From an uncultured candidate division Zixibacteria bacterium (GTDB lineage: Bacteria > Zixibacteria > MSB-5A5 > GN15 > FEB-12), in assembly GCA_937900185.1 (NCBI GenBank), contig CALCCW010000021.1, forward strand, positions 1 through 14,578: a stretch of 14,578 nucleotides of DNA, written 5' to 3'. The notes under the pieces are model-generated. The model was given only the letters and a program-made list of their open reading frames with translations. It did not search any database and was not told the origin of the DNA. Shown piece by piece: positions 1,193 to 14,578 of this stretch; position 1 is the first letter of the stretch, and each line of letters opens with the position of its first letter. The translations under genes were made by a program, and so were the position numbers.

Positions 1193-2317
1193 ATGTCATT
1201 ATTATTAGAAGTAATTGAATGGATGGACCCATCCGGCGATGAAATGATTTACCGTATTCCGCAGGAAGGTTCTGCCGATTTTAAGTTAGGTGCTCAACTT
1301 ATAGTACGAGATAGTCAAATGGCTTTCTTTTTCAAAGATGGGCATGCTGCCGATACATTTACGACCGGACGGCATACGCTTTCGACATTAAACGTTCCCA
1401 TTTTGACCAGATTACTGGCTTTCCCATTTGGTTTTAATTCACCATTTCGTGCAGAATGTTATTTTATAAATTTAAAAACGTACACCGATATGAAATGGGG
1501 TACAAAAAATCCGGTTACATTTAAAGACAGTAAACTTGGTTTGATTCGTTTGCGTGGTCATGGTGCTTTTACAATGAAAATTAAAGAACCGATTCTATTT
1601 TTAAATTCTATTGTTGGTCGTCAAGCAAAATTTACAACTTCTGAAATTCAAGATTATCTTCGTGATGTTATTATCGCACGTATGAATGATATGCTTGGTG
1701 AGAAACTCGATACGATTTTAGATCTCCCGTCAATCTATACCGAACTTGCCGAAGATTTTAAAGAATTAGTCAGCTCTGAATTTGAAAAATATGGTTTAGA
1801 ACTTGTAGATTTTTATATCTCTTCAATCACTCCTCCTGAAGAAGTAACCAAAATGATTGACCAGCGTTCCGGTATGGAAGCTGTTGGCGATTTAGATAAG
1901 TTCCTCAAATTTGAACTGGCTAAAGGGTTTGGAGGCACAAGTGGCTCAGGTTCTGCCGGAGCAAATATGGGGATGGCAGCCGGTATTGGTATGATGGTAC
2001 CTTCTATGATGCAAAAAGTATATTCACCGGATCAAACCGAATTAAAACGTGAACCGGTTGCTACTGTTACCTGTCCAAAATGTCATACCGACACACCCGA
2101 ACAGTCTCGTTTTTGTTACCGATGCGGTCATCAGATGATTGTACAAAATATCTGTCCTGCCTGTCAGAGTTCACTTCCGTCAGAAGCAAAATTCTGCTTT
2201 GAATGCGGTTTGAAGCTTGATGTGAAAACAACCTGTCCGCATTGTTCGGCTGAACTAATTGCAGGTTCCAAATTTTGCGGCGAATGTGGTAAGAATATAG
2301 ATGGCGATAATAGCTAA
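1193..2317 (+). CDS. SPFH/band-7-like protein of the YdjI/COG4260 type with a Gly/Met-rich linker and three tandem C-terminal zinc ribbons (zinc_ribbon_2-like)
   Basis: A strong RBS (AGAGGAG) sits 7 nt upstream of the ATG. The N-terminal ~240 aa ([21 protein letters not shown]...[17 protein letters not shown]...[14 protein letters not shown]...) resemble the COG4260 family of SPFH-domain proteins with a C-terminal Zn-ribbon, recalled from memory. [25 protein letters not shown] linker follows. The C-terminus has three ~28-aa repeats, each CPxC-x9-FCxxCG. The family assignment is from memory, not a search. Confidence 0.65.
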
Positions 2318-3701
2318 AAAAGAAATAAAAGGATTCCGTATCGGTGTCAGCTGCCCCGGATGCGGGGGAGAACTGGAACTTGAGGATAATTTTTTTGCTG
2401 TTGAGTGTCATCATTGCGGTTCTGCTCTTAGGCTAATAATGCCCGATGCTCCGCCTACTTTTGTTGCCGAAGTACAAATTACAAAACAGAAAGCCAGATA
2501 TGCGATTGACCGGTATCTCAAAGATGCCGGTAAACCGCTTACGCATTCAGATTATCAACTCAAACGGATGTATTACCCTTACTGGAAAGTTGATGCGATA
2601 CTTTTTCGACTCAGAAAGGGTGTTGAAAAAAAAGTTGTATCTTCTGAGTATTCTGATGATAATGAAAAAACGTACGAAACAGAAAAAATTGATATTTCTC
2701 TTTCACCGTACACTACAACACTTACTGCCGGAATGAACTATGACGGACTGCCTGATACTTTGGGGCTTCGCTCTGAATATCTCAAACTTTTCCCTTTATC
2801 TGATGAAAAAATTGACGAGAACTTTGATTTGCTGCCTATTATAAAATCATGGGAAGAAGTCAGAAAATCTCTCCATCAACATTTGGGAGCGATAAGCTCA
2901 TTTGATACAAATCTCTTTGGAGTAAATAAAACTGATATCTATGGACCTAAAGCAATGCTTCTGTATTTTCCATTTTTTCTTTTTGATTTTTATGATACCG
3001 ATGGATTTAATCGTTTTGTTATAGATGGTGTTACCGGTCGAGTGTTAAATCATATTACTTCTTTGGAGTTAGCCCCATCGGAGACATCTGAAACAGAAAA
3101 AATCACTTTGGGCGAAATATCTATTGTCTCACATCGATGCAGCAACTGCGGAGAAGATTTACCGTCGGAAGAATCATTGGTGTACATCTGTAAAAACTGT
3201 CAGGTTATAACAGATTTAGAACCCGGCGTTGAAATAGACACAATTCGGCAAGTAGTGCATCCGGTCAATCCTAATAACATCTTGGTACCATTTTGGGCAT
3301 TTAAAATAAAAGATATTGATGAATCTGTGTTAAAATCTATTTTTGGCGGTATATATCGGTCTGACAAAGTAGTTATTCCGGCTTTTCGGGTTCAAAACTA
3401 TAATGCTATTTTTAAACTAAGCAAAAGAATGTCCGCTGCCTTTCCTCAATTTGATTTTGAAAATATAATCACTATGGATAGACAATATGCTCCGGTGGAT
3501 TTACCGTTAAACGAAGCTCAGGTACTTACCGAAGTATTTGTAACAACCGATCAATATAAAAAAAATATCACTCATAAAAAGACAGAAAATCATTTTCAAT
3601 TTGATGATATAACTCTTTTTTATGCTCCCTTTCATTTGGAAAGTTATTTCTATGTCGATTCAGTTTTGCAGGCAGTAACTTTTGAAAAAAACCTCATTTA
3701 A
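2301..3701 (+). CDS. Internally duplicated zinc-ribbon protein of unknown function, translationally coupled to the upstream SPFH-like gene
   Basis: The start overlaps the upstream stop by 17 nt (ATGGCGATAATAGCTAA). An N-terminal CPGCGG-x15-CHHCG ribbon opens the first half. A second ribbon, CSNCG-x12-CKNC (residues ~280-300), opens a second half. The halves share hydrophobic motifs: [12 protein letters not shown] vs [12 protein letters not shown], and [16 protein letters not shown] vs [17 protein letters not shown]. There is no obvious TM helix and no recognised catalytic motif. Confidence 0.6.
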
Positions 3702-4070
3702 TATTCCTCTGACTTAGTAAACAAAACAGACGATAATTTTAGTTTTCAAATTGAGCCGTCAGGAACCCATTCCTGACATGAATTGTAGAGAACAGGCATG
3801 CCTCAACCCTACAAAAATAAGCTGAACAGCAGAAAATTTGGAACTAATTGCCTCCTATGTAGTAGAATTCACAACATCCCAAAACTGCCATTTATTTCAC
3901 TTGCGATTGCACTTGCAATTACCTATTTTTGAGCGTGTAAAAATGAATTTTAAGGATAAAAAATAATTATTAATATACCGTATTCCATCTTTTTAACTAT
4001 TTCTCCAAGTCATACTGAATTTGTTGAAGTATGTTCATGTTAAATACGGTATTTTTATATGGAGTGAAGA

Positions 4071-6704
4071 GTGTACAGATATTACAAACTATTGTTACTC
4101 ATCGTAACCGTTTTTCTTTATCTGCCGGTAGTCGGGTTTGCCGATATACCGGAATTTTTTGACCAACCCGATTCTGGCTATACAACCAATGTTGTGACAG
4201 ATATTATTACTCACGATAGTGCCATCTGGTTTGCCACCGATGAAGGGTTGAACTTTTCTTATGACGGCGGACAATCCTGGTTGTTATATGATAACAGTAA
4301 CGGATTAGTCTCCTCATCTATTTCAGCTTTATTTTCATTGCCATCTCGGTTTGGACAAAGAATTTGGGCAGCAACCAACCATCAGGAAAATATCGGAGGA
4401 GTCATTACCGGAATTTCCGATGGTGTTTCATACTCAGACGACAGCGGTCTCACATGGACTCAGGTTGATTTTGAGACTGCTCCAAATGACATTCCTTATG
4501 TATGGGGTGGAGACAGAACTATTTTTGATATTACCGGTCATTATGACCCAAACAATGACTCCTTGGACAATTGGGTGTTCTTTACTGCTTTTGCAGGCGG
4601 CTTTTTAGCCTCGCGTGACGGCGGTGAAAGTTGGAAACGAATTTTTCCTACCGTTGCAGATTCTATTCAATTTGAGGTTCCTAATGCTCAACCGTCTTTA
4701 CGAAATAGATACTTCTCCTGTGTTGCCGATACATCGCATGGCGATACTCTTATAGTATGGGCTGGGACTGCCGGCGGTATTTTTCAATATGTTTTTGCAG
4801 AACCCAAAGATAAACCGTTTACCAAACATGTGACCGATATAGAATTTTGTGACAGTTGTGGAACAGGAGATTCAAGTTTTGTTTATTATGGCGGATTAGA
4901 AGGATTTACTCGTGGTAATAAATTAACCGGTCTTGCTGTCAGTAAATTTATATCAGATGGTCTACTGGGAAGTCAAATAACATCAATGCTTGATTTTGGC
5001 GGTAAACTTTTCGTTGGTACTGCAGCTAGTGCTGATGACTACACTTCAAAAGGTCTTGCTGTTTCAACAGACTTTGGTGAGAGCTTTACTGCCACATATA
5101 ATCAACCTGCTTTTGAAGGTGCCGGACATAGAATTTCAGATTTTGCGGTTATGAATGACCGAATATATATGGCTCTTGAAGAAAATGGTTTGTATGTTTC
5201 CAATGACACCGGAGCGAACTGGAACTATGTTATAATAGACACCCTTGATACTACTCCTGACAATCGCCGTAATGTTGTAAATGCTTTAGAAGCTGTCGGA
5301 GACACTCTCAACATTGGTACCGACTCCGGGTTGGTCAGGCTGTATCTTTCCGCATCGGGAGCAGTCGACTCCTCACTGCAATTTGTTTTCCCAAGCAATT
5401 CAACATCCTCAACAAAAATTATCAAGGTAAAAACTCAACCATTAAGTAATGGTGATGTCAGGTTATGGACAGTCAATGTTCCTCTTGATACCGTACTTAA
5501 TCTTGCTACTGCTATAACATCATATTCACTTGACGGAGGTCAAACATTCCTGCCGCGATTTAATGTAAACGGACTTAACAGAAACATTGGTTTTATTGGT
5601 GATACAGCAGTTATCATTGGTGACTACGGTACGGTATATACAGATATCGGCGGTGTTTTGCCGTCAGAATCATTCCCGATATATCAAAAAGTTCCTCTTT
5701 CTGTAGATACTTTAACTAACGATACAACTTTTGTCGTTCTTGATTCACTAAATGCCGATTCGTTAACTTCTATAAAAATAAAAGGTGATACTGTAATTGT
5801 CGGTGGCAACAAAGGCTATGCTGTTTCTTTAGACAGAGGTAGCTCTTTTAATATTACCAGAGTAAATACAGAGTTTCTTGCTGCTGATTTTGTATTGAAT
5901 TATACATCTGCCATTCAAGGTATTGACGGTGATTGGGTTCCTGCTTTGGAAGTAGAATATAATGATTCATTTGTTTTTGCCCGTGTTTGGGCATCAGTTA
6001 GACCTACCTTTGGTGGTGTTCCGGGTATTTCGGTTAGTTGGGCTGCACCTGTTGTAGATACATTAGGTGATACTTTAAGATATGAAAGATTATGGGGGAG
6101 AGTACATGATGAATTTGCATGGAATTTCGCCCTTGCTTCTGATACTATATTTGCCGCAACAGATAACGGTCTAATATATGGCATAACAGATTCTCTCCTT
6201 TTTGGTGATATTACCTATGATTGGACAACAGTTGAAATGCTTGATTCAACAGGTGCATCGCTTCTATTAGAAGGTACTCCGGTATATGCGGTAGAAGTTG
6301 ATGACAACTATATATGGGCTGGCACAGGTGACAGAACAGTGAGGATTGATCGTTCAGACCTTACATTATCAAAAGCATTTTATGTCGAAGACCCTACTGA
6401 TGAAGTGTACGCCTTTCCAATTCCATTTAGTCATGCTAACTCAAATAGACTTGATTTTCATTTTATTGTAAAACAGCAGGCAGCTATTACTATTGAAATT
6501 TATGATTTTGCCATGCATTTGGTTAAACGTGTTGTAGACAATGTTACCTACGACCCGGGAATCTATCCGACCGCCGGTGCAAGCAGACATGTTTGGGATG
6601 GCTTAAACGGCAAAGGCGATGAGGTCGCTGTCGGGATGTATTACTTTAAAATTATATATTCAACCGGTGAAGTTCACTGGGGTAAAATTGCGGTTATTCC
6701 ATAA
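4071..6704 (+). CDS. Secreted BNR/Asp-box repeat (beta-propeller) protein with a T9SS-type C-terminal sorting domain
   Basis: GTG start with GGAG RBS 6 nt upstream. An upstream in-frame ATG at 4059 is followed immediately by a stop. The signal peptide is VYRYYKLLLLIVTVFLYLPVVGFA. Multiple Asp-box motifs (S-x-D-x-G-x-T/S-W/F) are present: SYDGGQSW, SDDSGLTW, SRDGGESW, STDFGESF, SNDTGANW, SLDGGQTF, SLDRGSSF. The C-terminal ~95 aa (AFPIPFS...ITIEIYDFAMHLV...WDGLNGKGDEVAVGMYYFKIIYSTGEVHWGKIAVIP) match the T9SS type-A / FlgD Ig-like sorting-domain pattern. Confidence 0.8.
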   Translation: MYRYYKLLLLIVTVFLYLPVVGFADIPEFFDQPDSGYTTNVVTDIITHDSAIWFATDEGLNFSYDGGQSWLLYDNSNGLVSSSISALFSLPSRFGQRIWAATNHQENIGGVITGISDGVSYSDDSGLTWTQVDFETAPNDIPYVWGGDRTIFDITGHYDPNNDSLDNWVFFTAFAGGFLASRDGGESWKRIFPTVADSIQFEVPNAQPSLRNRYFSCVADTSHGDTLIVWAGTAGGIFQYVFAEPKDKPFTKHVTDIEFCDSCGTGDSSFVYYGGLEGFTRGNKLTGLAVSKFISDGLLGSQITSMLDFGGKLFVGTAASADDYTSKGLAVSTDFGESFTATYNQPAFEGAGHRISDFAVMNDRIYMALEENGLYVSNDTGANWNYVIIDTLDTTPDNRRNVVNALEAVGDTLNIGTDSGLVRLYLSASGAVDSSLQFVFPSNSTSSTKIIKVKTQPLSNGDVRLWTVNVPLDTVLNLATAITSYSLDGGQTFLPRFNVNGLNRNIGFIGDTAVIIGDYGTVYTDIGGVLPSESFPIYQKVPLSVDTLTNDTTFVVLDSLNADSLTSIKIKGDTVIVGGNKGYAVSLDRGSSFNITRVNTEFLAADFVLNYTSAIQGIDGDWVPALEVEYNDSFVFARVWASVRPTFGGVPGISVSWAAPVVDTLGDTLRYERLWGRVHDEFAWNFALASDTIFAATDNGLIYGITDSLLFGDITYDWTTVEMLDSTGASLLLEGTPVYAVEVDDNYIWAGTGDRTVRIDRSDLTLSKAFYVEDPTDEVYAFPIPFSHANSNRLDFHFIVKQQAAITIEIYDFAMHLVKRVVDNVTYDPGIYPTAGASRHVWDGLNGKGDEVAVGMYYFKIIYSTGEVHWGKIAVIP

Positions 6705-6714
6705 TTAAGGAGAG

Positions 6715-7707
6715 ATGGTAATGAAAAAAATATTATTATTTGCAGTTCTGACATTATTCTGTCTGTCAACATCTCTCTTAGCTGAAGATGGTGATGCAGG
6801 TTATGCCGGCAGTTTTTTACAAGTTCCAATTGGTGCCAGACCGACAGCAATGGGTGGTGCATTTATTTCTATTTCAAATGATGCCTCCGGAAGTTTTTAT
6901 AATCCTGCCGGGATGTCTATAATCAAAAAATCAATTTTTGCTACTTCTTATAGAGCTATGCAGCTTGATAGAAAACTTGGATACACGGCGATTCTATTTC
7001 CGACTCAAGGAAATTCAGTTCTTGGATTTAGCTGGCTTTATGCCGGTTCGGGATCAGTAGATGCTCGAAATGATGATGGTGATTTATTAGGGAATACGTT
7101 AGAACAAAATAATCACCAAATTTCTATTCTGTTCTCAAAAAGATTTGAAAAATATTTATCTTTAGGATTTAAAGGTTCTTATTTGTACTCTAAGTTTGCT
7201 GAAATGTCTGTCTTTTCTGTTGGTATTGATTTAGGAGCAACTTTATATATAAGCCGGTTGTTCAGCAGAGAAAAAAGAGATTTAATGTCTATTCAGGATA
7301 TACAAGTTGGGCTTGTCGTGAGAAATTTAGCAGCTAATTTTAAGTGGAATAATGATAATTATTTGGCTGCACATAGCGGATCTGCTTTTGGAGGTTCTGA
7401 TCATATTGATGATTTCCCTGTAGAAATCGGCATTGGCGGTTCAGCAAGATTTTTTAATAGAAAACTTTTATTGAGTTCAGATATTGTGAAAAACAGCAAA
7501 GAAAATATTATTCTACATGCCGGAGGAGAATATTTTATTACCAAACAATTTGCTGCTCGTGTAGGATATACCGATAGAAGCTTGACTACCGGATTTGGCT
7601 ATGTTTTTAATTTAGATAAATTTGGCTTAGTGTTTGACTATGCCTATTCATCAGAAAAAGTTGGTGAAGGTTCGGAACATATATTTTCATTTGACATATT
7701 ATTTTAA
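6715..7707 (+). CDS. Outer-membrane beta-barrel protein of the FadL-like PorV/PorQ family, probably T9SS-associated
   Basis: AAGGAG RBS. The signal peptide is MVMKKILLFAVLTLFCLSTSLLA. The N-terminal motif IGARPTAMGGAFISISNDASGSFYNPAGM matches the FadL/PorV-family signature (GLGRAYSGEGA.ADDAS....NPA). The protein ends in Phe (FDILF), as is typical of OM barrels. It lies immediately downstream of the T9SS cargo gene. Confidence 0.6.
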   Translation: MVMKKILLFAVLTLFCLSTSLLAEDGDAGYAGSFLQVPIGARPTAMGGAFISISNDASGSFYNPAGMSIIKKSIFATSYRAMQLDRKLGYTAILFPTQGNSVLGFSWLYAGSGSVDARNDDGDLLGNTLEQNNHQISILFSKRFEKYLSLGFKGSYLYSKFAEMSVFSVGIDLGATLYISRLFSREKRDLMSIQDIQVGLVVRNLAANFKWNNDNYLAAHSGSAFGGSDHIDDFPVEIGIGGSARFFNRKLLLSSDIVKNSKENIILHAGGEYFITKQFAARVGYTDRSLTTGFGYVFNLDKFGLVFDYAYSSEKVGEGSEHIFSFDILF

Positions 7708-8636: not shown

Positions 8637-9755
8637 ATGGCAAAATACAAAATCGCCTGGCTGCCCGGTGACGGTGTCGGCAATGAAGTTTTGGAAGCAG
8701 CAAAAATAGTCCTCGATAAATTAGAACTTGATGCCGAGTACATTCATGGCGATATAGGCTGGGAATTCTGGAAAACTGAAGCAAATCCGCTTCCTGATAG
8801 AACTATCGACCTTATGAATAATACTGATTGTGCTTTGTTTGGTGCGATTACTTCTCTGCCAAAGGAAGAAGCCGAAAATGAACTTATTCCCGAACTGCAG
8901 GGGAAAGGACATGTATATGCATCGCCGATTGTCAGGCTCAGACAAGAGTTTAATCTCGCAACAAACTTACGTCCGTGTAAGGCATATATCGGAAACCCTC
9001 TGAACTATAGAGATGATATCGATATAGTTGTTTTTAGAGAAAACACTGAAGGGCTCTATGTCGGTTTAGAATTTCATCCGCTTCCTCAAGAATTACGTGA
9101 CTCTATACATAAATATAACAAAAAAATGGCTCGCTTTGACAAAGTTGCCAATGAAGATTTGGCGATTTCTATGCGTATTTTCTCTCGTGAAGGATGCCGT
9201 TCTATTGTGACAGATGCTTTTGAATATGCTAAAAAAACAGGACGGAAATCTGTCACGGTTGTTGAAAAACCAAATGTCATCAGAGAAACATCAGGGCTCA
9301 TGGTTCGCACAGCTCGTGAAGTTGCTAAAAACTACCCCGGTATTGAACTTTGGGAAACAAATATCGATGCTATGTGTATGTGGCTTGTAAAAAATCCGCA
9401 GAATTATTCTGTCATCGCAACATCAAATATGTTTGGTGATATTGTCTCAGACCTATGTGCCCAACTAATTGGTGGTTTAGGTTTTGCGTCATCGGGCAAT
9501 ATCGGTGAAAAATATGCAGTCTTTGAACCAACTCACGGTTCTGCTCCAAAATATGCAGGTCAATACAAAGTCAATCCTATGGCGACACTTTTGACTGTCA
9601 AAATGATGCTGGACTGGCTTGGCGAAACTGAAATGGCTCAAAAACTTGAAACTGCTATCTCTGAAGTTATTGCTGAGAAAAAAGTACGCACCTACGATAT
9701 GGGCGGTTCCAATACGACCCTTGAAATTGGCGAGGCTGTCGCAGCAAAACTGTAG
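8637..9755 (+). CDS. Isocitrate/isopropylmalate dehydrogenase superfamily enzyme, most similar to isocitrate/homoisocitrate dehydrogenase
   Basis: TAGGAG RBS. N-terminus is IAWLPGDGVGNEV. Central region is RLRQEFNLATNLRPCKAY...DIVVFRENTEGLY (compare E. coli Icd ALRQELDLYICLRPVRYY...MVIFRENSEDIY). Metal/substrate loop is NMFGDIVSDLCAQLIGGLGFASSGNIG (compare IDH NLYGDILSD...GGLGLAPSANIG). Confidence 0.85.
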   Translation: MAKYKIAWLPGDGVGNEVLEAAKIVLDKLELDAEYIHGDIGWEFWKTEANPLPDRTIDLMNNTDCALFGAITSLPKEEAENELIPELQGKGHVYASPIVRLRQEFNLATNLRPCKAYIGNPLNYRDDIDIVVFRENTEGLYVGLEFHPLPQELRDSIHKYNKKMARFDKVANEDLAISMRIFSREGCRSIVTDAFEYAKKTGRKSVTVVEKPNVIRETSGLMVRTAREVAKNYPGIELWETNIDAMCMWLVKNPQNYSVIATSNMFGDIVSDLCAQLIGGLGFASSGNIGEKYAVFEPTHGSAPKYAGQYKVNPMATLLTVKMMLDWLGETEMAQKLETAISEVIAEKKVRTYDMGGSNTTLEIGEAVAAKL

Positions 9756-9785
9756 ATATTTAAGGATACTAAATATATATAATCC

Positions 9786-9821
9786 AAGCAGGTTGAATTT
9801 ATTTCAACCTGCTTTTTTATT
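9786..9821. terminator. Bidirectional Rho-independent terminator between convergent genes
   Basis: Stem AAGCAGGTTGAA (9786-9797), loop TTTATT, stem TTCAACCTGCTT (9804-9815). TTTTTTAT follows on the plus strand and an A/T-rich run follows on the minus strand. The stem overlaps the rdgB stop codon (9804-9806). Confidence 0.7.
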
Positions 9822-10409
9822 TAACCTATTTATAATCAGAGTACGGACTTCCTGAAGTGCCAACCCTCTATGAGATATTATATTTTTCTCTTCAATGGTC
9901 ATCTCTGAAAATAGTTTTTGTGATTGCGGGTAGAAAAAAATCGGGTCATACCCAAAACCATCTCTATCGTCTATAGATTCCGCTATGAAGCCCTCAGCTA
10001 TGCCGTCGACGGTTTCAGTAGTAGACTCATCCCAACAGATAGTCATCACACAGCGGAATCGTGCCGTTCGTTTCTCAATAGGAATGTTTTTTAAATCATC
10101 AATAAGCTTTTTGCTATTATCTGTATAAGTTACATTTTCTCCGGCGTAGCGGGATGAGTAAACCCCCGGAGCTCCACTTAAGGCATCTACTTCAAGTCCG
10201 GTGTCGTCTGCCAAGGCGGGGAGACCGGTAAATTCATAAATTGCTTTTGCCTTAAGCAGAGAATTTTCTTCAAGAGTTGTGCCGGTTTCTTCAATATCGG
10301 GAAACTCTAAAAAATCATCACGAGTCATAATAGTGATAGGCAGGTCATCCAAGAGATTTTTCATCTCTTTAATTTTGTCTTGATTATTGGTAGCTAATAC
10401 AAGCTGCAT
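9804..10409 (-). CDS. rdgB: Non-canonical purine NTP pyrophosphatase (dITP/XTP pyrophosphatase, RdgB/Ham1 family)
   Basis: Begins MQLVLATNNQDKIKEMK. C-terminal region reads ...DGFGYDPIFFYPQ...TIEEKNIISHRGLAL, which are classic Ham1/RdgB motifs. Length is 201 aa. Confidence 0.9.
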   Translation of the reverse strand: MQLVLATNNQDKIKEMKNLLDDLPITIMTRDDFLEFPDIEETGTTLEENSLLKAKAIYEFTGLPALADDTGLEVDALSGAPGVYSSRYAGENVTYTDNSKKLIDDLKNIPIEKRTARFRCVMTICWDESTTETVDGIAEGFIAESIDDRDGFGYDPIFFYPQSQKLFSEMTIEEKNIISHRGLALQEVRTLIINRLNKKAG

Positions 10410-10917
10410 AATTTGTCTATTCCAATTTTAGTTTTTTCTTTAATCATAAATTAGTAGTAAACGGATGATATACGCAATCATTTTTTGTAAATTTTTCCGC
10501 AATAGTCATTGCGAACGGAGTCCGCAATTAGCGGAAGAAGTGTGGTAATCTTATTTTTGAGACCTGCACTTATTCCACTTCCATACAAGGAAATGACAAT
10601 TTTAAAAATATTAAAAGCAGAATGAGCATCCTTTCCGCCTTGGCGGACTCAGTAGGGGACAAGCAGCCTGTTCCTCTAAGACAGCCTCAATGCCCTGTCA
10701 GAACACAAATGGAAATGTTGAGGCATGCCTCAACCCTACAATTGTTTCCCCGAGGAATTAAGGGGTGAGTTTATTTTCATAGTGTTAGGGCTGGACTTCG
10801 TGTCAAGCACGGAGATGAGTTCAAGAGATAGAGATGTCTGGTTTCTCTCAATTATACTTTTTTAGAAGCGGAACCGAGACCTACTATTTTATAAATGGAA
10901 GTGTATATCATGATTTA

Positions 10918-14406: not shown

Positions 14407-14464
14407 AGATCGGAAGAGCGTCGTGTAGGGAAAGAGTGTAGATCTCGGTGGTCGCCGTATCATT
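14407..14464. other. Illumina TruSeq universal adapter (reverse complement): non-biological contamination
   Basis: Exact 58-nt match to AGATCGGAAGAGCGTCGTGTAGGGAAAGAGTGTAGATCTCGGTGGTCGCCGTATCATT. Confidence 0.97.
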
Positions 14465-14578
14465 AAAAAAAAAAGAAAAAGAGAAAGAGACAGAGAAAAA
14501 AAAAGAAAAGAAAAAAAAAGAGAGAAGAGTAGGAGTAAGAACTAGTCAATAATCGCGAAGCAGATTAACATGAGAACA
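14465..14578. other. Low-complexity poly(A)/AG-rich tail and unrelated sequence downstream of the adapter. It is not contiguous genomic sequence.
   Basis: The run AAAAAAAAAAGAAAAAGAGAAAGAGACAGAGAAAAAAAAAGAAAAG... sits directly after the adapter. This is typical of read-through junk or a chimeric join. Confidence 0.85.

Follow-up and report, generated by a model that had tools for sequence, protein, structure and literature searches.

The 14,578-nucleotide (nt) stretch of DNA analysed here (the window; contig CALCCW010000021.1 of assembly GCA_937900185.1, from an uncultured candidate division Zixibacteria bacterium) contains two copies of a 21-nt element, AGGCATGCCTCAACCCTACAA, which is very probably the core, right half-stem and foot of a GTAG-tagged repetitive extragenic palindrome (REP) of the type associated with subclass 2.4 of the REP-associated tyrosine transposases (RAYTs, or TnpAREP). 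Small hairpin-forming REPs are an established class of DNA element, selfish or structural, that a domesticated tyrosine transposase disperses. Of the two REP copies in the window, one is intact and the other decayed; the element is a commonplace dispersed repeat and no regulatory switch common to the two loci. The 21-mer occurs at 3794-3814 (copy 1) and 10721-10741 (copy 2), exact and on the + strand at both sites, and no third copy was found in the window with up to three mismatches on either strand, in agreement with the earlier note that drew attention to the element. No match arose in 200 dinucleotide-preserving shuffles, the chance expectation being 0. Both copies are intergenic and lie nearer the stop codon of the upstream gene, copy 1 being 93 nt past the stop of the open reading frame (ORF) at 2301-3701 and copy 2 177 nt past the murI stop; the flanking genes are on the + strand at copy 1 and on the - strand at copy 2. 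Copy 2 is also present in L017, an independent contig that supplies 5.4 kb adjoining the window (retrieved loci are numbered L001 onwards).

Read on the - strand, the element consists of a TTGTAGGG foot followed by the hairpin GTTGAGGCATGCCTCAAC, and this combination of a GTAG foot and a palindrome is the signature of GTAG-tagged REPs. The GTAG/CTAC foot is present in both window copies and in every retrieved copy, and the foot-plus-palindrome layout recurs in every exact copy retrieved. A repeat finder reported the two copies as the right portions of longer imperfect palindromes, AATTGTAGAGAACAGGCATGCCTCAACCCTACAA and AATGGAAATGTTGAGGCATGCCTCAACCCTACAATT, and found the left part of copy 1 to be complementary to the right part of copy 2, indicating that the ideal form is TTGTAGGGTTGAGGCATGCCTCAACCCTACAA. 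The intact form is a 32-nt double-foot palindrome, TTGTAGGG-TTGA-GGCATGCC-TCAA-CCCTACAA. One of the readings offered in the earlier note, a small dispersed repeat resembling REPs or miniature inverted-repeat transposable elements (MITEs), was thus borne out, the element being a GTAG-tagged REP by layout and by family membership.

One scan of a species-representative genome collection with the 20-mer GGCATGCCTCAACCCTACAA returned 16 loci in seven genomes among 185,579: three Ignavibacteria-type metagenome-assembled genomes (MAGs; L001, L004 and L011), Oceanobacter kriegii, one Anaerolineaceae MAG, the Zixibacteria MAG JAJRQO01, with four exact copies on four contigs (L003, L005, L006 and L007), and the Oscillospiraceae MAG SIG506, with seven copies; the window itself has two copies in 14.4 kb. 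A scan of JGI metagenomes gave four loci, and viral contigs gave 0 matches to the 20-mer, providing no evidence of a phage vehicle. The 26-mer GGTTGAGGCATGCCTCAACCCTACAA is common to 16/16 genome-collection loci and to three of the four metagenome copies; L020 reads GGTCGA. No long frame crosses most of the other copies; a RAYT ORF and an MmeI-family ORF are the exceptions. The family follows the scaffold GTAG(G/A)G-N4-(G/A)GCATG(C/T)C-N4'-CCCTAC, in which only ~4 stem base pairs (bp) vary, with compensation. A perfect double-foot palindrome is found in L001 and L004, and the feet GTAGGG...CCCTAC in L001, L004 and L022; the intact 32-nt form (L004) folds at -14.8 kcal/mol (z = -7.3). Among the fetched loci, 11 of the 12 distinct types of CATG-centred palindrome with arms of at least 5 bp carry a GT[AG]G/C[TC]AC foot, and columns G3, T4 and A5 are invariant in the hairpin alignment. 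When 16 hairpin types were aligned, 93.8% of cells were paired and 28 double-sided changes were counted versus 7.3 in shuffles, with 5-8 such changes at each of the four variable stem pairs, all of which covary; this count is partly circular, as most of the hairpins came from a palindrome scan.

The association with RAYTs was observed in other genomes. In L011 (a Melioribacter MAG; the gene is also in L018), the element lies within a 184-aa ORF that carries the motifs NHIH (HuH), WQ and YIELNP and matches NCBIfam REP_Tyr_transpos (E = 1.4e-12) and Pfam Y1_Tnp. The RAYT genes of L011/L018, L022-L024 and L025 have the subclass-2.4 motifs NHIH, WQ and YIE(L/Q)NP and match REP_Tyr_transpos at E = 1e-12 to 7e-17, a model that the associated proteins fit far better than transpos_IS200. 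The Ignavibacteria RAYT genes hold the palindrome in frame between HuH and Y, where it is translated as VGLRHASTLQ, a peptide seen in frame in the homologs P0001, P0008 and P0009; on the contigs of P0008 and P0009 the in-frame insert reads GTAGGGTTGAGGCATGCCTCAACC(C/T)TAC at the DNA level, and same-family hairpins flank the gene. The L011 RAYT gene is likewise flanked on both sides by hairpins with the same scaffold and other stems (GTAGGGTCAAGACATGCCTTGACCC, GGGGACAGGGCATGTCCCGTCCCTAC, AGGGACGGGGCATGCCCAGTCCTTAC and GTAGAGTCGAGACATGTCTCGACCCTACAA), and in the Ignavibacteria loci L011, L022 and L025 REPs of the same family flank the RAYT. A flavin mononucleotide (FMN)-reductase neighbour is common to the P0008 and L011 genes, and L011 and L022 share synteny at the RAYT locus; retention of this neighbour is as expected of a domesticated, vertically kept single-copy RAYT gene.

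A protein search with the L011 RAYT (6517-7071) found 685 homologs, 120 of which were listed (P0001-P0120). Among these 120, the GLRHAST peptide occurs in six, and a hypervariable segment of 18-84 aa, which resembles translated GTAG hairpins, joins HuH to the LxNI(I/V)GSFKSAVTK helix (VGLRHASTLQ, VETGHAPSLQ, VETRHASSLQ, VGTCHGMSLQ and others). In some homologs, such as P0070 and P0027, this segment comprises several tandem units; such segments are highly pervasive in Ignavibacteria and Bacteroidota metagenomic proteins and are known from Quentin et al. 2018. Outside RAYT genes, the double-foot REP of L001 (3502-3531) lies in frame within a 924-aa MmeI-family restriction-modification ORF (2327-5101, - strand), in the region matching the MmeI methyltransferase domain (…SRVEACLNPTKVAFVSTNSITQGEQ…), and in L025 an MmeI-family gene adjoins the RAYT, with REPs ahead of that gene.

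These features agree with what has been described for subclass 2.4 (Bertels group 4). According to the passages of Quentin et al. 2018 (PMC6006769) cited here, its members have the motifs NH[IFV]H, WQ and YIxNNP, are abundant among Cyanobacteria and Bacteroidetes, with a scattered distribution across many phyla, and are accompanied by long and double-foot REPs, the latter opening with GT[AG]G (5') and closing with its reverse complement (3'); REPs are inserted in tnpAREP between HuH and Y with the frame intact, and double-foot REPs possibly derive from a central deletion of an inverted dimer. As judged against these passages and the group 4 account (PMC5581495), the element shares the G-C pairs at the stem bottom, the flanking and in-frame REPs, the protein motifs, the scattering over many phyla at low to moderate copy number, and a double-foot form that a central deletion within an inverted dimer could explain, copy 1 being an illustration. 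Group 4 was found in 17 bacterial classes, with flanking 16-mers that are just moderately frequent (Bertels et al. 2017, PMC5581495), which fits the low copy numbers here. The element differs in its host, a Zixibacteria-like marine bacterium whose phylum is not named in those passages of PMC6006769, in that no cognate RAYT was found in the window or L017, and in that the combination of a TTGA stem with the GGCATGCC core was not met in the cited portions of the REP/RAYT literature.

Beyond subclass 2.4, members of the GTAG superfamily have compensated stems, form clusters, lie preferentially downstream of genes and include intragenic copies (Di Nocera et al. 2013, PMC3733652). With the GTAG-tagged REPs of that study, and with the REPs and bacterial interspersed mosaic elements (BIMEs) of E. 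coli and SMAG of S. maltophilia, the present family shares 20-40 bp palindromes with a terminal GTAG, 6-13 bp stems with compensatory variants, head-to-head dimers 1-100 bp apart, BIME-like mixed clusters, a location mostly downstream of genes and occasional in-frame intragenic copies. In E. coli, REPs number in the hundreds and their stems are imperfect and bulged, whereas perfect stems, a conserved GGCATGCC core and a low observed copy number are seen here. In the Pseudomonas REPIN-RAYT system (REPIN, a REP doublet forming a hairpin), two inverted REPs plus a spacer also form the replicative unit, and the RAYT is single-copy and vertically inherited (Bertels and Rainey 2011, PMC3116915). However, the REPs of a REPIN are inverted copies of each other that fold into one long hairpin, whereas in the dimers described below the stems differ (AACA or GCGG versus TTGA) and only the feet could pair across the unit; the window dimer is therefore not a REPIN, its stems being unlike and its fold (10650-10743) giving z = -0.2/-0.7, no better than shuffled. 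The hairpins of IS200/IS605 elements (IS608, ISDra2) similarly combine a single-stranded DNA hairpin, a 5' guide tetranucleotide and a Y1 HUH enzyme; here, by contrast, the element encloses no transposase, its left and right ends are not distinct, and the associated protein belongs to the RAYT type. Rickettsia palindromic elements are small palindromic repeats that are able to sit in frame within protein-coding genes, as the REP does in the RAYT ORF and in the L001 MmeI-family ORF, but they are ~100-150 bp long and lineage-restricted, without a GTAG foot or a RAYT link.

Copy 2 is the intact REP of the window (10717-10741, - strand; TTGTAGGG plus GTTGAGGCATGCCTCAAC, with a 7-bp stem and a CATG loop), and includes the 21-mer at 10721-10741. 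The 18-nt perfect palindrome previously reported for this copy, GTTGAGGCATGCCTCAAC, was confirmed at 10717-10734, where the single-stranded DNA folds at -5.6 kcal/mol (z = -3.55). Alignment with L006 and L007 places copy 2 as the right REP of a head-to-head (GTAG-outside) dimer spanning 10652-10741, which consists of a left REP, an internal hairpin, a spacer and the right REP; this is the commonest REP arrangement (PMC3733652). The left REP is degenerate (GTAGGGGACAAGCAGCCTGTTCC, 10652-10674, + strand), its intact form being GTAGGGAACAGGCATGCCTGTTCC at L007 3762-3781, and the internal hairpin is GACAGcctcaatgccCTGTC (GACAG..CTGTC, 10680-10699). The window dimer aligns with L006 and the module that follows it with L007, both from the Zixibacteria MAG; a similar layout with another left stem is found in L019 and L021, and tandem arrays occur in the Oscillospiraceae MAG. 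The two sides of the dimers differ in stem (AACA/TTGA, GCGG/TTGA and AAAA/TTGA). The earlier note had also described similar GTCAG(G)AAC motifs ahead of both copies; at copy 2 the motif, GTCAGAAC (10697-10704), is the 3' arm CTGTC of the GACAG..CTGTC hairpin plus AGAAC, and the homologous composite L006 reads CTATCGGTAC in its place. Since GTCAGAAC derives from another hairpin and differs in L006, its likeness to GTCAGGAAC is probably coincidental.

The Oscillospiraceae MAG SIG506 carries seven dimers of ~110 nt, some in tandem (L002, L008, L010, L012, L013, L015 and L016), each with GTAGGGGCGGGGCATGCCCCGCCC, ~57 nt of conserved spacer and GGTTGAGGCATGCCTCAACCCTAC, and their right-hand REP is identical to that of the window. 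The murI-rdgB spacer that holds copy 2 (10410-10917, 508 nt) is a BIME-like mosaic of several short repeat modules, for example at 10505-10525, 10634-10647, 10742-10800 and 10868-10884; the names of the two flanking genes are confirmed by matches to Pfam Asp_Glu_race and Ham1p_like, respectively. A small hairpin, TCCGCCttGGCGGA (10634-10647), stands immediately upstream of the dimer, and a module beginning TTGTTTCCCCGAGGAATTAAGGGGTGAGTTTATTTTCATAGTGTTAGGGCTGGA (10742-10800, + strand), which follows the same REP in L007, stands immediately downstream. Further along, GCGGAACCGAGACCTAC (10868-10884, - strand) is tentatively read as a probable relic of a second GTAG REP class (GTAG-GTCGRAACC...GGTTYCGAC), intact members of which flank the L027 RAYT gene, with others in L005 and L007. 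From the same spacer, GCGGACTCCGTTCGCAATGAC recurs at L017 4217-4237 and the module TTGTTTCCCC..ATTAAGGGGTG..TTTTCAT recurs in L007. Folding the whole dimer or mosaic as one structure gave no signal (z = -0.2 to -1.1) and so lent no support to one large structured element.

Copy 1, delimited by repeat finder, folding and simulation, is a hybrid double-foot REP at 3783-3814, TTGTAG-AG-AACA-GGCATGCC-TCAA-CC-CTACAA, with its feet at 3785-3788 (GTAG) and 3809-3812 (CTAC); the 21-mer (3794-3814, + strand, an exact match) comprises its core, right half-stem and CCCTACAA foot. The left half-stem AACA is that of the partner REP type (GTAGGGAACAGGCATGCCTGTTCC, L007) and the right half-stem TCAA that of the TTGA type, so that pairing is limited to the feet and the core. 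Accordingly palindromic only in the 8-nt GGCATGCC core, copy 1 folds as single-stranded DNA at -2.6/-3.5 kcal/mol (z = -0.8/-1.1), no better than shuffled sequence. A deletion simulated in the L007 head-to-head dimer, from one AGGCATGCCT core to the other, gave a product that matches copy 1 at 31/32 positions. Judged from its sequence, copy 1 is a decayed, non-folding hybrid that would have arisen by deletion between the identical GGCATGCC cores of a REP dimer, and it offers a natural illustration of the origin proposed for double-foot REPs. Next to it, folding confirmed the 8-bp hairpin GTCAGGAAcccaTTCCTGAC (3758-3777) of the earlier note, which belongs to a separate hairpin-repeat family adjoining the REP; the combined region 3755-3816 folds at -10.2 kcal/mol (z = -3.67). 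Three further copies of this hairpin lie in L017, at 2379-2401, 2745-2764 and 2774-2793. These GTCAGGA(A)..(T)TCCTGAC hairpins form a small repeat family of their own in the source organism and stand twice immediately ahead of a (T)GTAG(G/A)G foot; one of their neighbours, CGTCGGGAAcccTTTCCCGACG, resembles the CGTC-tagged REPs of Di Nocera et al. 2013.

We also compared the two sites with their orthologous loci. The MurI of the window is 85-86% identical to proteins of two NCBI MAGs, and its closest named matches are Zixibacteria. One of the two, the Zixibacteria MAG GCA_024280215.1 (L027; MurI 85% identical), has four exact copies of the element on four other contigs, indicating that the element is dispersed in a close relative; two of these copies sit in composites homologous to copy 2, at non-orthologous sites. 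The gene downstream of copy 1, an 877-aa ORF, had been labelled as a cargo gene of the type IX secretion system; it matches BNR only, with no sorting-domain match, and the gene after it is of the PorV/PorQ family. In L026, the spacer upstream of the ortholog of this gene (called the cargo gene below) aligns locally with window 3837-4070, that is, over 234 gene-proximal nt at 79% identity, and the 135 nt of the window that hold both hairpins correspond to 45 unalignable bases; neither GGCATGCC nor GTCAGGAA occurs across the 20.8 kb of L026. The murI-rdgB spacer, 508 nt long in the window, measures 57 nt in L028 (4651-4707), where it carries another REP, GGTTCAGGCATACCTGAACCCTACAG, oriented the other way. 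Such site turnover among orthologous loci fits a mobile or decaying repeat, not a conserved operator.

Other differences were noted among these loci. A DCC1-like gene separates murI from rdgB in L026 (10866-11273) and L027 (10861-11265), but neither the window nor L028 has it; in L026, rdgB and icd are additionally separated by a methyl-accepting chemotaxis gene, and icd itself is broken into two ORFs, of 56 aa and 311 aa. The conserved region upstream of the cargo gene contains an inverted repeat, CATACTGA..TGAAGTATG, at window 4012-4038, which in L026 (positions 216-260 of the spacer, taken as the reverse complement of 20025-20321) is interrupted by an extra 18 nt with the palindrome CAGCTTGCAAGCTG; this region resembles the GTCACCCTGAGC..GTCGAAGGGTCA hairpins of L027.

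Several observations weigh against the reading of the element as a REP of the subclass-2.4 type. Searches (tblastn) with the Ignavibacteria and L027 RAYTs found no RAYT in the window, L017, L026 or L028. Subclass-2.4 RAYTs were shown in no Zixibacteria, and the RAYT of the relative belongs to another subclass: the L027 RAYT (60-563; NCBIfam REP_Tyr_transpos, 142.7 bits; motifs DHMH and YIHYNP) is flanked by inverted GTAGGTCGAAACCcctgtGGTTTCGAC REPs (22-48 and 581-607) of another GTAG REP class, with which it forms a complete REPtron ~7.5-8 kb upstream of the syntenic smpB-amidase-murI genes. Exact copies are few (four in the related MAG and four JGI metagenome loci), copy 1 is unable to form a hairpin and is a dead copy at best, the scores of the Ignavibacteria RAYTs fall short of the trusted cutoffs of Pfam and NCBIfam, and the circularity of the covariation count points the same way.

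Among the alternatives, we considered whether the hairpin is an exapted RNA structure or terminator that ends or 3'-stabilises the transcript of the upstream gene, an explanation that is compatible with REP identity and that we regard as unlikely. Transcript-level hairpin roles are documented for some E. coli REPs. Both copies lie nearer the 3' end of the upstream gene (93 nt and 177 nt), and a terminator scan flagged copy 2 on the - strand, where the 7-bp hairpin is followed by the tail ATTTCCATTT; a position mostly downstream of coding regions is, in addition, usual for REPs (PMC3733652). However, the T-run after copy 2 is poor, copy 1 folds no better than shuffles and the scan found no terminator-like site there, the two copies are oppositely oriented relative to transcription, and the element is absent or different in the orthologous spacers. 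The lack of any Rfam match at either site (E <= 1), together with these opposite orientations, also speaks against the structured RNA suggested in the earlier note, and a scan for tRNA and tmRNA found nothing at either site. Copy 2 might have a secondary role for murI, as a hairpin at the end of its transcript. The operator reading, in which a transcription factor bound at TTGAGGCATGCCTCAA would co-regulate the cargo gene and rdgB/murI, could draw on the 18-nt perfect palindrome of copy 2 and on the two intergenic sites, but is highly improbable and is largely refuted by the comparison of orthologous loci. The palindrome of copy 1 is just the 8-nt GGCATGCC; the conserved gene-proximal 234 nt of L026 exclude the element, of which L026 has no copy or trace in the spacer; and the REP of L028 has a different stem and is reversed. 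Moreover, the identical 26-mer stands beside unrelated genes in five phyla, within a RAYT ORF and within an MmeI-family ORF, and an operator would leave the conserved GTAG foot unexplained.

A further alternative is that the element is an IS200/IS605 end, or a derived palindrome-associated transposable element or MITE, with a subterminal hairpin recognised by TnpA and possibly a TnpB omega-RNA. TnpA of IS200/IS605 is a homolog of RAYTs, and the two enzymes alike rely on a hairpin with a 5' guide tetranucleotide (PMC8266576). A conserved repeat of ~110 nt in the Oscillospiraceae MAG also ends in the hairpin. An IS605 right end or omega-RNA was accordingly tried as an account of this repeat and was rejected, since alignment resolved it into tandem GTAG-outside REP dimers. 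As there is no tnpA or tnpB near the window copies and no Y1 or TnpB ORF in the window, and as the proteins match REP_Tyr_transpos far better than transpos_IS200 and the RAYT locus keeps its synteny and its FMN-reductase neighbour between L011 and L022, we consider an insertion-sequence origin quite improbable. A chance repeat or assembly artefact might be suspected because the end of the window is itself an assembly artefact (Illumina adapter at 14407-14464); this we consider refuted by the absence of matches in 200 shuffles, the reproduction of copy 2 in the independent contig L017 and the recurrence of the element in many genomes.

By homology with studied REPtrons, a GTAG-tagged REP would act as single-stranded DNA, its hairpin and GTAG foot being bound by an HUH/Y1 enzyme that would cut beside the hairpin and transfer strands. 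The GTAG is thought to work like the guide tetranucleotide of IS200/IS605 elements, setting the cleavage site (PMC8266576). Strand transfer of this kind would carry REPs, singly or as dimers, into intergenic DNA, mostly to sites a short way downstream of genes, and copies may afterwards decay or recombine. In the source organism, the REPs of the window may have been mobilised by a RAYT in this way, and some may have taken on a host function such as that of a transcript-end hairpin.

Two further features lie elsewhere in the window. L017 diverges from it exactly at 14407, where AGATCGGAAGAGCGTCGTGTAGGGAAAGAGTGTAGATCTCGGTGGTCGCCGTATCATT begins (14407-14464), which we take to be an exact 58-nt Illumina adapter read-through; a poly-A/G run follows after 14464, and the window end (14407-14578) is an assembly artefact. 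Where the convergent icd and rdgB genes meet (9786-9814), an inverted repeat, AAGCAGGTTGAatttattTCAACCTGCTT, followed by a T-run resembles a bidirectional terminator, its right arm overlapping the rdgB stop codon. This terminator-like hairpin accounts for the sole Rfam match in the window, a sub-threshold L20_leader at 9676-9826 (24.2 bits versus a gathering score of 58.7).

The occurrence of one 26-mer, GGTTGAGGCATGCCTCAACCCTACAA, in Zixibacteria, Ignavibacteria, Oscillospiraceae, Anaerolineae and a gammaproteobacterium would be explained if the in-frame REP of subclass-2.4 RAYT genes served as a portable master copy, so that horizontal transfer of the gene alone could establish that REP population in another host, a proposal we hold to be rather doubtful. 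A simpler account, in which lineages reach the same stem variant independently, is quantitatively adequate: with a conserved scaffold and ~4 free stem bp there are only 256 variants, making independent arrival possible, and since ~5% of species carry subclass 2.4 (Table 1 of PMC6006769, within the parts cited here), seven genomes with this variant among 185,579 are unsurprising. For the annotation of this genome, both motifs and the surrounding mosaic are REP/BIME-like repeats rather than candidate operators or novel RNAs. No new mechanism is required, and the range of the GTAG-REP, subclass-2.4 double-foot family is extended, very probably, to a Zixibacteria-like marine lineage.

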